Source of the DNA: Candidatus Forterrea multitransposorum CG_2015-17_Forterrea_25_41
Lineage (GTDB): Archaea > Iainarchaeota > Iainarchaeia > Iainarchaeales > CSSED10-239
NCBI GenBank assembly: GCA_009392915.1
Contig: CP045477.1
Span: forward strand, 96,001-160,000
DNA length: 64,000 nucleotides
Direction: 5' to 3'
Shown here: positions 2,397-49,582 of the stretch, one piece after another
Layout of the letters: each line of letters opens with the position of its first letter
Numbering within the stretch: position 1 is the stretch's first letter
The notes under the pieces: model-generated
Database searches by the model: none
What the model was told of the DNA's origin: nothing
What the model saw: the letters and a program-made list of their open reading frames with translations, nothing else
Translations under genes and position numbers: made by a program

Positions 2397-4484
2397 ATGC
2401 AGTTAAAGAAACTAACTTTAGTTTTATTATTTTTATTTATTTTTTCCATACCAGTTTTTTCTTCTTCTATAACTCTTTATGTTTCCTCTCCTTTTTCCTC
2501 TTCATCTTCAAATTTTAGTATTTCTCCTTCACTTTCTTTTGACAAGTTATCTTTAGTTTCAGAAGATAATTTATCTTTATTAAGAGAGCAAAATATTATT
2601 GTTAAAGAAGAAATTATTAAAGAAAAAGAATCTTCTTTAGAAGATAATTCTCTGTTAGAAGAAATAAATTCTCCAAATCATATTTATGAAACTTATTTTC
2701 AAGATTCTGTAATGATTGGAGATGTTTATTTTCCAGAAGGTATAATTGATTCTTCTCAAGTAAGAGAAAGAAGAAATATTAACTCTCAGTCTACAGTTGA
2801 TAATATTTGGGGTACCACTCCATTAACTGGAGAATATCATATTCCTGTTTTTTTAGTTGATTTTTCAGATGTTCCACATACTCTTTCTAAAGAAGTTTTT
2901 GAAGAACAATTTAATTCTCCTCTTTACTTGGACGGTAATGGTACAAGTGTAAGTCAGTATTACAAGAAACAATCCTATGGTGAACTTGATATTACTTTTG
3001 ATGTTTATGATTGGAGAGAAATGCCTGAAACTTATGAATATTATAGTACAAGATTAGGTGTTTTTGGAGCTCAAACAATAGATCTTTTTGGAACTGGTCC
3101 AAATGCAATTGATTTAACTCAATATGATTCTGATAATGATGGTAGGATAGATGGTTTTGTAATTGTTCACGCTGGTTTTTCTTTACAGAACGCTGGTACT
3201 GGTCATATTAAGACATCTACTTTATTAATGTATTCTGATGAAATTTTAACCATTCAAGGTTTGCATTATGGTAATATAGCTGTTACTTCTGAGAGATATC
3301 CTAGTTGTTCTTCTGGTTTTAATGAAAATTTAATTCCATATCCAGATGATTGTAGAATTGGTGTTTTAGATCAAACACATGAGTTTGGTCATATTTTAGG
3401 TCTTCCAGACTTTTATGGTATTGATCCAAATACTGGTGGTCAATCTCCTGGTCTTCAAAACCTAACTATGATGATGATGTATGATGACATTCCTCAAAAA
3501 CCAATTAATTTAGATGCTTGGGCAAGATATTTTTTAGGTTGGATACAACCAACTGTAATTGAAGAGGGCATGGAAGGTGTTTATCCAGTTTATTCAATTG
3601 ACACCAATCCAGATGGTGCTTTTATTTTACAAGATCTAACTGAGATGGATGAACGTGAATTTTTTATAATTGAAAATAGATTTATGCAAAACTCCCCTTA
3701 TAATCAAGATACTTTTCTTTTAAACACTTCTCAACTAAATTGGGATTATTTAAATGGTCATTTTGGTGGAATTGCAGTTTATCATGTTGATGAGCAATAC
3801 ATTGAAGATAATTATCCAACTAACAGTATCATGTGGGATCCTGATGGAGATTTTTATGATGATACTATAGGGCATCCTGGAATCGTTTTTGAAGAAAATA
3901 TAAAATTTTCAGAAAATAATTGGGATTATTCATTAGGAGATTTATATTCTAGTGAACGTAATGCTGGTTTTGGAGATAATACTTTTGGTAATTTTGATAG
4001 ATACCAAAGATTTTATCCAGAATATAATATGTTATGGGATTATCACAATAAAGCCTATAATGGTAATTTAACTGGTGTTACTGTTGGCACTTTAAGTGGT
4101 AGTGGATCTATAGTTTATGCTTATCTTCAAAGTTATCAAGAAACTTTTAATGCTTTAATCTCTTCTCCAAAAAATAACAGATGGTATAAGTATACTAATA
4201 ATTTAAATTTCATTTCAAGTTATTATAATAATTTAGGAGATGTAAGTTGTGTTTGGGAAGATTCCAGTAATAATATTCTATCTCAAGATTGTGAATTTTC
4301 TGCAACTCCAGAAGATTTAGGTTTACCAATCAGTGAATGTTCTGAGAAAATCACTCTAACTTTAGAAATAACAGATCAAGAAACTGGTGATACAATTATT
4401 GATACTGTTGATATAAAGATTTATGAAACCATAAGAGATATTTGTGAGACTGCTCATAACAACACCCAAGCAGCCACAAAATAA
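2397..4484 (+). CDS. secreted zinc metalloprotease, M6 (immune inhibitor A)-like
   Basis: 695 aa; Sec-type signal peptide MQLKKLTLVLLFLFIFSIPVFSS; HEFGHILGLPDFYG zinc-binding motif (HExxHxxGxxD) of the M6/InhA family. Confidence 0.55.
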   Translation: MQLKKLTLVLLFLFIFSIPVFSSSITLYVSSPFSSSSSNFSISPSLSFDKLSLVSEDNLSLLREQNIIVKEEIIKEKESSLEDNSLLEEINSPNHIYETYFQDSVMIGDVYFPEGIIDSSQVRERRNINSQSTVDNIWGTTPLTGEYHIPVFLVDFSDVPHTLSKEVFEEQFNSPLYLDGNGTSVSQYYKKQSYGELDITFDVYDWREMPETYEYYSTRLGVFGAQTIDLFGTGPNAIDLTQYDSDNDGRIDGFVIVHAGFSLQNAGTGHIKTSTLLMYSDEILTIQGLHYGNIAVTSERYPSCSSGFNENLIPYPDDCRIGVLDQTHEFGHILGLPDFYGIDPNTGGQSPGLQNLTMMMMYDDIPQKPINLDAWARYFLGWIQPTVIEEGMEGVYPVYSIDTNPDGAFILQDLTEMDEREFFIIENRFMQNSPYNQDTFLLNTSQLNWDYLNGHFGGIAVYHVDEQYIEDNYPTNSIMWDPDGDFYDDTIGHPGIVFEENIKFSENNWDYSLGDLYSSERNAGFGDNTFGNFDRYQRFYPEYNMLWDYHNKAYNGNLTGVTVGTLSGSGSIVYAYLQSYQETFNALISSPKNNRWYKYTNNLNFISSYYNNLGDVSCVWEDSSNNILSQDCEFSATPEDLGLPISECSEKITLTLEITDQETGDTIIDTVDIKIYETIRDICETAHNNTQAATK

Positions 4485-45475: not shown

Positions 45476-45961
45476 ATGTTTAAACTATTTAAGAAGACAA
45501 GAGTTACAGAAGTTGTTGAAATTGATGAGTCTACTATTTCTGAAATTAAAAGACCTAAAGTTGTTCAAGTAGAACAAAAGAACTATAGAGTTAAATCTAT
45601 TGATTGGTTAGAACAACATTATATAGTTGTTTCAGAAGTTGCATCTGGTAAAAAAACTGGTGCAAGACAACAAGGAAAATTTACTTTTGAAGGAAGACAG
45701 ATCTATAAGGATGATGTTACAAGAAAACTTTATAGTGATCTTTTAGATAATTATAGTTATTATGCTATGACTGTTAAAAGATATATTGTTGTTAGAAAAG
45801 AACTTGAGATTATTGATAAACAAAAAGATGAAGAATACTTAATTGCAGGTAGAGCGAAAGAATTTAATTTAGAAGCTTCAAGACTTGAGAATGCATTAAA
45901 TGTTTATCTAACAAATATTAATGTTATTAAAAATAAGATTAAGGATTATTTATATTCTTAA
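45476..45961 (+). CDS. hypothetical protein
   Basis: 161 aa soluble ORF, no recognisable motif, good coding periodicity. Confidence 0.4.
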   Translation: MFKLFKKTRVTEVVEIDESTISEIKRPKVVQVEQKNYRVKSIDWLEQHYIVVSEVASGKKTGARQQGKFTFEGRQIYKDDVTRKLYSDLLDNYSYYAMTVKRYIVVRKELEIIDKQKDEEYLIAGRAKEFNLEASRLENALNVYLTNINVIKNKIKDYLYS

Positions 45962-46008: not shown

Positions 46009-46203
46009 TTAAATCATTCCTTTTGCCATACCTTTGGTTGATCTTAAACATTTTTTATGCCAATACTGTCCACCCCATTTTTTATCACAACCTTTTTGGT
46101 TGCAAAGGGCGCATGTTTCATCAGGATATTTAGATTTTGAGAAATCTATTCTTTTTTCATTATCTTCTTTATTTTCTTTTTTTTTAAATAATCCAAATAC
46201 CAT
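46009..46203 (-). CDS. small Cys/His-rich (zinc-binding?) basic protein
   Basis: 64 aa; CALCNQKGCDKKW...HKKC; chosen over two overlapping low-complexity plus-strand ORFs; no clear SD. Confidence 0.3.
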   Translation of the reverse strand: MVFGLFKKKENKEDNEKRIDFSKSKYPDETCALCNQKGCDKKWGGQYWHKKCLRSTKGMAKGMI

Positions 46204-46443: not shown

Positions 46444-46518
46444 GGGAGTGTAGCTTAGTCTGGTTGGAGCACTCGACTGATAATCGAGAGGCCGCAGGTT
46501 CGAATCCTGCCATTCCCA
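46444..46518 (+). tRNA. tRNA-Ile (anticodon GAU)
   Basis: GGGAGTG-TA-GCTT-AGTCTGGTTG-GAGC-A-CTCGA-CTGATAA-TCGAG-AGGCC-GCAGG-TTCGAAT-CCTGC-CATTCCC-A; no CCA encoded. Confidence 0.85.
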
Positions 46519-46559
46519 CTTTCTATTTTTATATAGATTTTAAAAAAAGAGGATAATTT

Positions 46560-46733
46560 ATGAGAAATATACAAGATGTATTAAAATCAGATTCCGATTA
46601 TGATTTTTCTGAATTTGATTATGATGAAGATCCTAAAAAGAAAAAACAAGACCAATTAGATTCACAAGAAGAAGAAATTCGTGTTGATGATGAATGGGAT
46701 GATGAGTCAGATGATAGTGATTCTGACTATTAA
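46560..46733 (+). CDS. small highly acidic protein (57 aa)
   Basis: not in the ORF track (under 60 aa); ATG 8 nt after AGAGGA; sequence MRNIQDVLKSDSDYDFSEFDYDEDPKKKKQDQLDSQEEEIRVDDEWDDESDDSDSDY; sits directly upstream of the histone-fold gene. Confidence 0.35.
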   Translation: MRNIQDVLKSDSDYDFSEFDYDEDPKKKKQDQLDSQEEEIRVDDEWDDESDDSDSDY

Positions 46734-46853
46734 TTTTTTTTATTTTTTTACTTAATTTTAGTGCTATTTTTTAGTTAATAATAATCTATTTAAATACTTT
46801 GTACCATATATTATTATAGTGTTTTTAATAATTAATGAAAGGGGTATTTAAAT

Positions 46854-47267
46854 ATGAGTGAAGTTGAAAAACAAATAAATGATCAAGAAGTTTTAGAAAA
46901 AAAAGAAGAAGCTTTAGTTGATGATGAAGATGAAGCTTTAGAAGAAGATGATGAAAAACTTCCTTTCCCTAATGCTAGAGTTGTAAGACTTATGAGAGAA
47001 AGTTTAGATCAAAATAAACAAATCAAATCTGTTGTTAAAAAAGAAATGAATATTTTCTTAGGAAGAATAGTTGAAACTATTTGTAAGAAAATGAACGAAT
47101 TTGATTATAGTTATGTTGATTATGGTATGTTTAAGCAAGCAATAGAAACTTTTGAAAATATTCAAACAATTGAACTTGAAAAAATAAGAATCATAAAAGC
47201 TTTAGAAAAAATAAAAGCAGATTGTGATGTCTTAGTAAATGATGTTGAAAGAAAATTCCATGAATAG
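46854..47267 (+). CDS. histone-fold protein (CBF/NF-Y / archaeal histone superfamily) with acidic N-terminal tail
   Basis: 137 aa; acidic N-terminal 35 residues, then LPFPNARVVRLMRES...IKSVVKKEMNIFLGRIVETICKK, which resembles the alpha1-L1-alpha2 of NF-YC/NC2-type histone folds (LPLARIKKIMK...). Confidence 0.5.
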   Translation: MSEVEKQINDQEVLEKKEEALVDDEDEALEEDDEKLPFPNARVVRLMRESLDQNKQIKSVVKKEMNIFLGRIVETICKKMNEFDYSYVDYGMFKQAIETFENIQTIELEKIRIIKALEKIKADCDVLVNDVERKFHE

Positions 47268-47348
47268 ATGGAATTTTTTATTTTTATTTTTTTTAAAATA
47301 TTTTTTTTTTAACTTTAAAAAAAAACAAAAAACCTATTTAAAAAGAAG

Positions 47349-48980
47349 GTGATTTTTATGACTGATTCTCAAACACAAAATAACGCCATGTTTGGTGAAG
47401 GAACTAGACGTGAGAGGGGCAAAGATGCTCAAAAAATAAACATACTTGTTGCAAAAGCAGTTGCTAATGCGGTAAAGTCTACTTTAGGTCCAAGAGGGAT
47501 GGACAAGATGCTTGTTGATGAACTTGGAGATGTAACTATTAGTAATGATGGTGCTACAATTTTAAAAGAAATGTCAATAGAACACCCTATAGGTAAGATG
47601 TTTGTTGAACTTGCAAAAACACAAGATGATGAAGTTGGAGATGGTACTACTTCAAGTGTTATTATTGCAGGTGAGTTAGTTTCTAAAGCTGAAAACTTAC
47701 TTGATGAAAATATACATTCTTCAATAATTATTAGAGGATATAAAATGGCTTCTGAGAAAGCAATTTCTTTTTATCAAGAAATTTCAGAAGATATTTCTTT
47801 AAGTGATAAAGATCTTTTATTAAATATTGCAAAAACTTCAATGACAGGAAAAGCTTCAGACTATAGTGATTATCTTTCAAAAGCTGTTGTTGATTCTATA
47901 TTGATGATTTTAAATGAAACAAATTATAAAGAAATTGATAGAGATAAAATAAGACTTGAAAAAAAGATTGGATCTTCAATTTCTGAAACAAAAATAATTG
48001 ATGGTATTGTTCTTGATAAAGAGATTGTGCATCCTGAAATGCCAAAATCTTTAGAAAATTGTAAAGTTGCAATTTTAAATACTGCTCTTGAGATTAGAGA
48101 ACCTGAAAATGATACTAAAATACAAATCAATTCTCCTGAACAACTTCAAATGTTTATTGAACAAGAAGAAAGTCAATTAAGAAAAATGGTTGATAAATTA
48201 ATTGAAACTAAAACAAATATTGTTTTTTGTCAAAAAGGAATTGATGATCTTGCAGAACATTATCTTTCAAAAGCTGGTATTTCTGCAATTAAAAGAGTTA
48301 AACAATCAGATATTGAAATTTTAGCAAAATCTTCAGGCGCAAAGATTATTACAAGAATAAATGATATGTCACAAGAAGATTTAGGTTTCTTTGGAAAAGT
48401 TTATGAAAAGAGAATTTCTGGAGAAAATATGTTGTTTATTGAAAATCCTAAACAAAAAGGAATTGTTACAATTCTTTTAAGAGGTTCTTCAGAACAAGTT
48501 TTATCTGAAACAGAAAGAACAATTACAGATGCTATTGGTGCTGTACTTTCTTCACTTAGATCAGGAAAATATGTTTCTGGTGGGGGTTCTTGTGAAATTG
48601 AAGTTTCTTTAAGACTTAAAAACTATGCTAAAACAATTGGAGGAAGAGAACAACTTGCAATTGAAGCATTTGCAGATGTTTTAGAATCTATTCCTAAAAT
48701 TTTAGCTGAAAGTTCTGGACTTGATGCAATTGATACTTTAGTTTCTTTAAGAAGTATACATCAAGATATAAATAATAAAAGTTATGGGGTAGATGTAATT
48801 AATAGTAAAATAGAAGATATGAAAAAATTACATGTTATTGAACCATTAAACCTTAAAACCCAAATTATTAATTCTTCTTTTGAAGTAGTTGAAATGATTC
48901 TTAGAATAGATGATATTATTGCAGCTTCTTCAAAGAATAAAGGGCAAGGTTTTCAAGGAATGCCAAATAATTTAATGTAG
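47349..48980 (+). CDS. ths: thermosome subunit (group II chaperonin)
   Basis: 543 aa; [21 protein letters not shown] and the equatorial/apical domain pattern; SD AAGGTGA; coordinates taken from the ORF track. Confidence 0.85.
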
Positions 48981-49011
48981 ATTTTAAAAAAGAAAAATAT
49001 ATAAACTCTTA

Positions 49012-49031
49012 CCTTCTATAAATATTTATAA
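49012..49031 (+). promoter_or_regulatory. candidate BRE/TATA promoter (CCTTCTATAAATATTTATAA)
   Basis: shares the CCTT-TATAAATATTT core with the elements at 52416 and 55744; lies ~55 nt upstream of the OB-fold gene. Confidence 0.35.
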
Positions 49032-49076
49032 CTTGTAAATTTTAACAAGTTATTATTTTATAAATTTGATAAATAT

Positions 49077-49415
49077 ATGAAAGTAAAAGATATAAAACCT
49101 TTCCAAAAAAAAATAAGTCTTTTATGTAAAGTAATTTCAAAGACTGAAATAAGAAAAGTAGTTTCAAGATTAGATGAAATTGAACATAAAGTTTGTGAAG
49201 CTTTAATTGGTGATGATACTGGTGTTGTTTATCTTACTTTATGGGATTTATCTATAGAAAATTTACAAGAAGGTAAGGTTTATTCTTTTGAAAATCTTTA
49301 TTCTTCAGAGTTTAAAAAATCTTTAAGACTTAATCTTGGAAGATTTGGAGAATTTAAAGAAGTTTCTCAAGAAATTGAAGTAAACAAAGAAAATAATCTT
49401 TCAAAAGAAGTTTAA
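49077..49415 (+). CDS. single OB-fold ssDNA-binding (RPA/SSB-like) protein
   Basis: 112 aa; KISLLCKVIS...ALIGDDTGVVYLTLWD matches the RPA-type OB-fold signature (IGDETGxIRLTLW). Confidence 0.55.
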   Translation: MKVKDIKPFQKKISLLCKVISKTEIRKVVSRLDEIEHKVCEALIGDDTGVVYLTLWDLSIENLQEGKVYSFENLYSSEFKKSLRLNLGRFGEFKEVSQEIEVNKENNLSKEV

Positions 49416-49450
49416 TTTTTTTCTTTTTAAAAAAGTATTATTATTATTTT

Positions 49451-49525
49451 GGAAGTGTAGCTTAGTCTGGTTAGAGCATTGGTCTTATACACCAAAGGTC
49501 GCAGGTTCGAATCCTGCCATTTCCA
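49451..49525 (+). tRNA. tRNA-Ile (anticodon UAU)
   Basis: GGAAGTG-TA-GCTT-AGTCTGGTTA-GAGC-A-TTGGT-CTTATAC-ACCAA-AGGTC-GCAGG-TTCGAAT-CCTGC-CATTTCC-A; the anticodon loop reads C-U-U-A-U-A-C; near-identical backbone to tRNA-Ile(GAU). Confidence 0.75.
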
Positions 49526-49582
49526 CTTTTTTTTAAAAATAAAGCTTTATAAATCTAATTAACTACTATATATTAGATAATT

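Follow-up and report, generated by a model that had tools for sequence, protein, structure and literature searches.

A tailed coiled-coil (HMfC-type) histone in an Iainarchaeota genome and its neighbour, a clade-specific acidic mini-protein gene

The coiled-coil (CC) histones combine a histone fold with a long C-terminal helix (Schwab et al., Nat Commun 2024, PMC11390915). They are predicted to be tetramers in which two dimers face opposite ways, and 'highly negatively charged tails', N- and/or C-terminal, are described as 'a common feature' of the class (PMC11390915). One member, HMfC of Methanothermus fervidus, has been found to bridge DNA in vitro (PMC11390915). The phyla in which CC histones have been reported are the Iainarchaeota, Altiarchaeota, Aenigmatarchaeota, Undinarchaeota, Nanoarchaeota, Methanobacteriota(_B), and others (PMC11390915), and in a 2026 preprint the 'HMfC histone (coiled-coil histone)' is already a standard class of chromatin protein. 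The MJ1647 histones of the Methanococcales and the RdgC histones are likewise made of a fold followed by a C-terminal oligomerisation element, forming back-to-back dimers that bridge DNA (PMC11390915). How DNA binding is regulated in tailed prokaryotic histones is a question that was left open by Schwab et al.

The DNA analysed here, referred to as the window, is a 64-kb stretch of a DPANN genome from the Iainarchaeota. It has a G+C content of 24% and its archaeal genes include those for GatE, a thermosome, and an OB-fold Ssb-like protein. Both of the open reading frames given in the original prediction are present, on the forward strand, with the coordinates and the tail string that had been quoted: a hyper-acidic mini-ORF of 57 aa (family 'A'; 46560..46733; protein MRNIQDVLKSDSDYDFSEFDYDEDPKKKKQDQLDSQEEEIRVDDEWDDESDDSDSDY) and a 137-aa histone ORF (46854-47267), in which LPFPNARVVRLMRE begins at residue 36. 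The larger protein consists of a disordered acidic N-terminal tail (residues 1-35, 46854..46958), a histone fold (residues 36-101, 46959..47156), and, at the C-terminus, a long helix with a heptad pattern. The helix is the coiled-coil element known from CC histones and, together with the stop codon, occupies 47157..47267 (residues 102-137). The fold is identified from the AF2 model, from Foldseek, and from PF00808 matches in homologues.

The neighbourhood is syntenic in the clade and runs through HIT, orf161, a Zn-protein, tRNA-Gln, tRNA-Ile, the mini-ORF, the histone, the thermosome, the OB protein, and a second tRNA-Ile. The order CC histone, thermosome, OB-fold Ssb-like protein, and tRNA-Ile(UAU), at 46854-49526 (+), is kept clade-wide, even where the upstream flank differs. 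Further upstream, the 161-aa ORF at 45476-45961 is also conserved and has no Pfam or NCBIfam family. Adjoining tRNA-Gln is a gene for a small Cys-rich protein of 64 aa (CALCNQKGCDKKWGGQYWHKKC; 46009-46203, reverse strand), which has a weak PHD-like zinc-finger match that is under the cut-off (PF13771, E 0.01) and is 67-94% identical in those relatives that have the upstream gene order of the window. Neither the histone nor the mini-ORF matches any NCBIfam family, and the same is true of two neighbouring ORFs.

The tRNA-Ile gene at the end of this order has the anticodon UAU (49451-49526, +; ARAGORN) and is found at the same position, 3' of the OB-fold gene, in most relatives (L001, L003-L007, L011, L012, L016, L018-L021, L024, and L082). 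In most archaea AUA is read by an agmatidine-modified CAU tRNA and the UAU isoacceptor is uncommon. Its presence may be linked to the 24% G+C content.

The evidence for a histone fold in the 137-aa protein is marginal when judged by sequence. The PF00808 score is 19.2 bits against a cut-off of 21.4, and it is because of this low score that the gene carries the NCBI label 'hypothetical protein'. Weak PF00808 matches were obtained for 28 of 32 homologues, with a best E of 4e-5, and a search of PDB sequences with the single protein returned only noise (homing endonucleases and phosphoglycerate mutase, E >0.6). At the structural level the fold is clear in the AF2 model, which has a pLDDT of 82 overall and of 90-96 in the core. 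The fold helices are predicted at residues 40-50 (alpha1), 59-80 (alpha2), and 90-101 (alpha3), with pLDDT 90-95 in this part; L1 lies between alpha1 and alpha2, and L2 between alpha2 and alpha3. Residues 103-135 are modelled as one long helix (pLDDT 90-96), for which the best heptad register places I, I, K, I, L, I, C, L, V, and K at the a/d positions. This helix is conserved across phyla, for example as LEKIKADCD. The top Foldseek matches against the PDB are histone folds throughout, with NF-YB first (E 6.6e-4), and the Asgard histone HHoB superposes on the model with an rmsd of 1.4 A over 67 columns.

The 137-aa protein belongs to the already described CC (HMfC-type) class of archaeal histones, a placement that goes through a Methanobrevibacter homologue, the primer-encoded termini of HMfC, architecture, and taxonomy. 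The fold, the C-terminal helix, a sequence relationship, an acidic tail, and the phylum distribution were all found. A profile of the Methanobacteriales-like branch recovers Methanobrevibacter proteins of ~141-146 aa. One of these, of 141 aa, has the same layout as the window histone and is 52% identical to it over 104 aa, covering fold and helix (E 9e-38). A further protein, P0102, matches the window histone with a phmmer E of 1.1e-23, and its close relatives (74-99% identical) include proteins named by NCBI as Methanobrevibacter sp. The sequence MEEKLPFA, encoded by the HMfC cloning primers, fits the family motif EKLPF[PA].

The histone family comprises 97 clusters at the 50% identity level. 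A scan of the genome collection with alignment A1 gave matches in the Iainarchaeota, Methanofastidiosum, Undinarchaeota, Aenigmatarchaeota, Altiarchaeota, and Woesearchaeota, all of them archaeal, and this phylum spread is that of the groups given for CC histones in PMC11390915. The best 120 matches of the A2 profile search are DPANN relatives only. The relatives include one that is 96% identical and bears the name 'Candidatus ainarchaeum sp.', along with others recorded as Iainarchaeum or Diapherotrites.

The acidic N-terminal tail of 35 aa reported in the original prediction is real. Residues 1-35 contain 17 D/E and 4 K/R (net -13) with no aromatic residues, and residues 1-30 have a pLDDT of 47-60 in the AF2 model. 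A tail charge of -5 or below is found in 91 of 91 close homologues, in 118 of 118 Methanobrevibacter-like homologues, and in 63% of the 50%-cluster representatives. The tail sequence varies among homologues and is always acidic; aromatic residues make up ~0.2% of the histone tails. Since such tails are a published hallmark of CC histones and one is present in all 91 close homologues, the tail of the window histone is to be expected. What had been taken for an anomaly is thus present across the family and is the norm for a class described in 2024 (PMC11390915). The histones of this clade are without an acidic C-terminal tail, unlike the Methanobrevibacter members.

By analogy with HMfC, the likely function of the protein is homo-oligomeric bridging of DNA. 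Homology suggests that two chains would form a canonical handshake dimer and that two such dimers would then join back to back, as a tetramer held together by a coiled-coil bundle of the C-terminal helices. The basic alpha1/L1 faces would be turned outward and bind two DNA duplexes, bridging rather than wrapping them. According to a published hypothesis, the acidic tail probably folds onto the basic face that contacts DNA, where it would tune or auto-inhibit binding (PMC11390915).

Binding of DNA by the full-length protein is not assured, because it is acidic as a whole, with a pI of 4.7 and a net charge of -12; that of the core is only +1. An overall charge of -12 would suit a scaffold with a histone fold and no DNA binding in vivo, acting as a protein-protein interaction module or a decoy. 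An hhalign alignment of the family to the single HMfB sequence, weak (probability 2.5%) and used for residue mapping only, is in register with HMfB residues 3-67 and puts YSYVDY at the L2 RKT DNA-contact motif and Q56 at the position of R19, so the canonical L2 contacts appear to be absent. There is also precedent in some minor prokaryotic histone classes that have lost DNA-binding residues (Schwab et al.). Nonetheless, the alpha1-L1-alpha2N face is basic (net +4, pI 10.4), R45, K55, K58, and K62 are conserved or nearly invariant, and binding and bridging of DNA in vitro are known from the close structural class (PMC11390915). A scaffold of this kind is considered quite unlikely.

CC histones also exist naturally as tandem doublets. 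Four metagenomic proteins of 239-286 aa (P0097, P0193, P0194, and P0195) each have two complete fold-plus-helix units in one chain, in addition to an acidic N-terminal tail. The doublet P0193 is modelled as an intramolecular handshake pseudodimer with L1/L2 beta-bridges, and the model matches single-chain H2B-H2A dimers and the doublet histone of M. kandleri, 1F1E. As a model, it offers indirect support for the handshake-dimer step and for that step only. One doublet histone is entered at JGI as 'menaquinone-dependent protoporphyrinogen IX oxidase', apparently a mis-annotation.

The fold had been predicted to be of the NF-Y/NC2 type. The structure model and Foldseek bear out the fold itself, and membership of the NF-Y/NC2 group is not borne out by sequence (E 0.09). 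If the protein were an NF-YB/NC2-beta-like cofactor subunit with a histone-fold partner, in a module with the mini-ORF, the NF-YB chains at the top of the Foldseek matches would be explained, as would NF-YB being the top, though non-significant, match among PDB sequences. The resemblance to NF-YB is due to the shared helix after alpha3, which is also found in H2B. The family profile matches NF-YB among the PDB sequences with E values of 0.09-0.8 only, the relatives are all archaeal, and the natural doublets are made of two copies of the same family rather than of two families. Further, the published class is modelled as homotetramers and one member bridges DNA (PMC11390915). The 64-kb window contains no second histone-fold ORF: searches of it for a dimerisation partner with HMfA, HMfB, and the family profile found no NF-YC/NC2-alpha-like gene and no second histone gene. 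Taken together, a cofactor subunit of this type is very improbable.

Turning to the mini-ORF, its product has 24 D/E in 57 aa, which makes it hyper-acidic as had been predicted, at 42% rather than ~45% Asp/Glu. The net charge is -17 and six residues (10.5%) are aromatic. The Shine-Dalgarno sequence that had been noted is present as a GAGG motif ~7-10 nt 5' of the ATG. Of 258 ORFs that reach 30 aa in the 64-kb window, no other has a D+E content of 35% or more. The protein carries the motif DYDFSEFDYDEDP, has W46 as a second aromatic residue, and shows DSDSDY at its C-terminus. The motif, in the form DYDxx[DE][FY]DYD[EG][DP], is common to 17 sequences, which also share the second conserved aromatic residue and an acidic-aromatic C-terminus; Y14, D20, Y21, D22, and D54 are invariant among them.

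Comparison with L004 and L005 gives a dN/dS of 0.06-0.09 at a dS of 0.8-1.2 (Nei-Gojobori). The mini-ORF is therefore a real coding gene under purifying selection, and its conservation in relatives, one of the checks proposed with the original prediction, extends through one clade of the Iainarchaeota. The possibility that it is a chance ORF of an AT-rich genome is ruled out by this dN/dS and by the conserved aromatic positions. Nor is it a split-off histone tail, as the DYD motif occurs in the tails of 0 of 366 family proteins and the aromatic content of 10.5% far exceeds that of the histone tails.

No Pfam or NCBIfam match was obtained for the mini-ORF. The exact 57-aa product is absent from a collection of 15 billion proteins in which the neighbouring histone is recorded on 43 contigs, which makes it evident that gene callers skipped the gene in this lineage. 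Versions in the sister clade are called, as 'hypothetical protein'. The product is a small acidic protein specific to one Iainarchaeota clade and, given its composition, is probably disordered. It is at most a candidate binder of basic proteins, and a role related to the histone is speculative.

The ATG of the mini-ORF lies 40 nt after the 3' end of tRNA-Ile(GAU) (46444-46560, +), a spacing that is kept in relatives sharing the upstream gene order of the window. The mini-ORF may be co-transcribed with this tRNA, or it may have a very short leader starting from the TATA-like TTTATATA at ~-30.

Among 81 related loci, hyper-acidic small ORFs are confined to the close clade, where they always lie upstream of the histone. 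In close relatives, where the histone is 67-96% identical, one or two of them are present upstream on the same strand; those of L018 and L020 are less acidic, with the motif still present. There is no mini-ORF upstream of the CC histone in L022, L023, or any of the 57 loci L025-L081, which represent more distant Iainarchaeota and other phyla. A second and different family of hyper-acidic mini-ORFs also exists, for example at 3710-3868 (+) of L001, with others in L010-L013, L015-L017, L019, and L014. These begin with MYVINND..GQVYK, followed by a tail of 53-63% Asp/Glu, and in the sister clade they form a tandem with the family-A mini-ORF, on the side facing the CC histone.

One possible reading is that the small protein works as a partner dedicated to the CC histone, binding its basic face in trans and serving as chaperone, antagonist, or DNA mimic. 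Wherever a close relative has enough sequence 5' of the histone, a mini-ORF is present upstream within ~1.2 kb and in the same orientation. When metagenomes were searched with the mini-ORF alignment, five loci came up, and the CC histone is downstream in all four of those that have enough downstream sequence. The mini-ORF also stays with the histone where a block containing RsmB parts it from tRNA-Ile. The strong purifying selection, the three conserved acidic-aromatic positions, and the lack in the clade histones of the Methanobrevibacter members' acidic C-terminal tail would all be consistent with such a partner. Against this, the mini-ORF is limited to one clade and is absent from the more distant loci listed above, and because the whole neighbourhood is syntenic in the clade its adjacency to the histone may be simply inherited. 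In L008/L083 and L011/L017, moreover, insertions of unrelated genes separate the mini-ORF from the histone.

The sequence between the two genes bears on the same point. Directly 3' of the mini-ORF stop codon is a T-rich tract (T8-A-T7, 46734..46749, +), a possible archaeal oligo-T terminator, and each of the five aligned relatives also has a T-rich tract after this stop codon. It is followed by a 28-nt block, TAATAATAATCTATTTAAATACTTTGTA (46776..46803, +), with a TATA-like box ~60 nt 5' of the histone ATG, which is likely to be the histone promoter. Across the window, L003, L004, L005, and L006, 27 of the 28 positions in this block are identical, and the intergenic sequence on either side of it is divergent and contains indels. 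The T-run and the conserved promoter-like block suggest that the mini-ORF and the histone are transcribed separately and, like the insertions, count against a dedicated partner, which is considered rather unlikely. A single operon of mini-ORF and histone is likewise unlikely, given the T-run, the promoter-like block, and the insertions in four loci.

A histone-directed role for the mini-ORF, argued from conserved proximity and composition only, is improbable. The same applies to the proposal that the mini-ORF protein and its paralogue-like tandem neighbour in sister lineages act in trans as a regulator or chaperone of the CC histone, on its basic DNA-binding face; this too is unlikely. The eukaryote-like chromatin or transcription-cofactor module that was originally envisaged is not upheld, in view of the archaeal relatives, the lack of a partner gene in the window, the restriction of the mini-ORF to one clade, and the signals for separate transcription. 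Most probably, the locus consists of a bridging histone of the CC (HMfC) type and a lineage-specific acidic mini-protein that is best regarded as its neighbour.

The interest that remains lies in the mini-protein, which has been missed by gene callers in this genome, is under strong purifying selection, and is always encoded just upstream of the CC histone in one clade of the Iainarchaeota. If it does bind the histone, the two would make a tractable pair for studying how DNA binding by tailed prokaryotic histones is regulated. As a regulator or chaperone of that histone, it would be a prokaryotic counterpart to the acidic histone chaperones of eukaryotes, one that arose independently in a DPANN lineage with a CC histone that is without a C-terminal acidic tail.

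Of the systems described to date, the window protein is most like HMfC (Mfer_0945, UniProt E3GZL0) of Methanothermus fervidus, where a histone fold is likewise followed by a long C-terminal helix and where the EKLPF motif is found at the N-terminus, as it is at the start of the fold in the window protein. HMfC itself is without tails, whereas the window protein has an N-terminal one. Acidic disordered tails, and a phylum distribution that includes the Iainarchaeota, are shared with the CC histones, although the window protein has an N-terminal tail only and the Methanobrevibacter members have tails at both ends. For HMfC bridging has been seen in vitro; for the window protein a tetramer and bridging are expected by homology.

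The alpha1-L1-alpha2-L2-alpha3 fold is common to the window protein, HMfA/HMfB, and HHoB. Nucleosomal histones are ~65-70 aa, consist of the fold only, and have a C-terminal tetramer interface of alpha3/alpha2, whereas the window protein is twice as long, its fold being joined by an acidic tail and one more C-terminal helix. YSYVDY and Q56 take the place of the L2 RKT and R19 contacts of the HMf type in the weak alignment by hhalign. With 137 aa, the extra helix and tail, and a PF00808 score of 19.2 bits where 21.4 are needed, it falls outside the HMf type. Nucleosomal histones wrap DNA, while the window protein, by analogy, is expected to bridge it.

NF-YB, NC2-beta, and Dpb4 are the best matches among solved structures and also have a helix after alpha3, but the heptad C-terminal helix of the window protein is much longer. 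These three differ further in that there is no significant sequence similarity, in that no heterodimer partner was found in the window, and in that the window family is archaeal only. The MJ1647 and RdgC histones have little sequence similarity and different C-terminal domains, and the RdgC histones share an operon with two further proteins, one RdgC-like and one transmembrane (PMC11390915). The locus in the window does not have this arrangement.

For the mini-ORF, the nearest likeness is to motifs rather than to a family. Acidic-aromatic motifs are found in eukaryotic histone chaperones, among them Swc5 with its DEF/Y motif, YL1, Chz1, and Anp32e. In the mini-ORF protein, likewise short and very acidic, conserved aromatic residues are similarly set among Asp/Glu (EFDYDED, DDEWDD, and DSDSDY), a likeness to the Swc5-type motifs that is drawn in part from PDB titles. 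There is no homology to the eukaryotic chaperones, and the mini-ORF protein is a free-standing protein of 57 aa. Its hypothetical target would be an archaeal CC histone, whereas that of the Swc5-type chaperone motifs is H2A-H2B.
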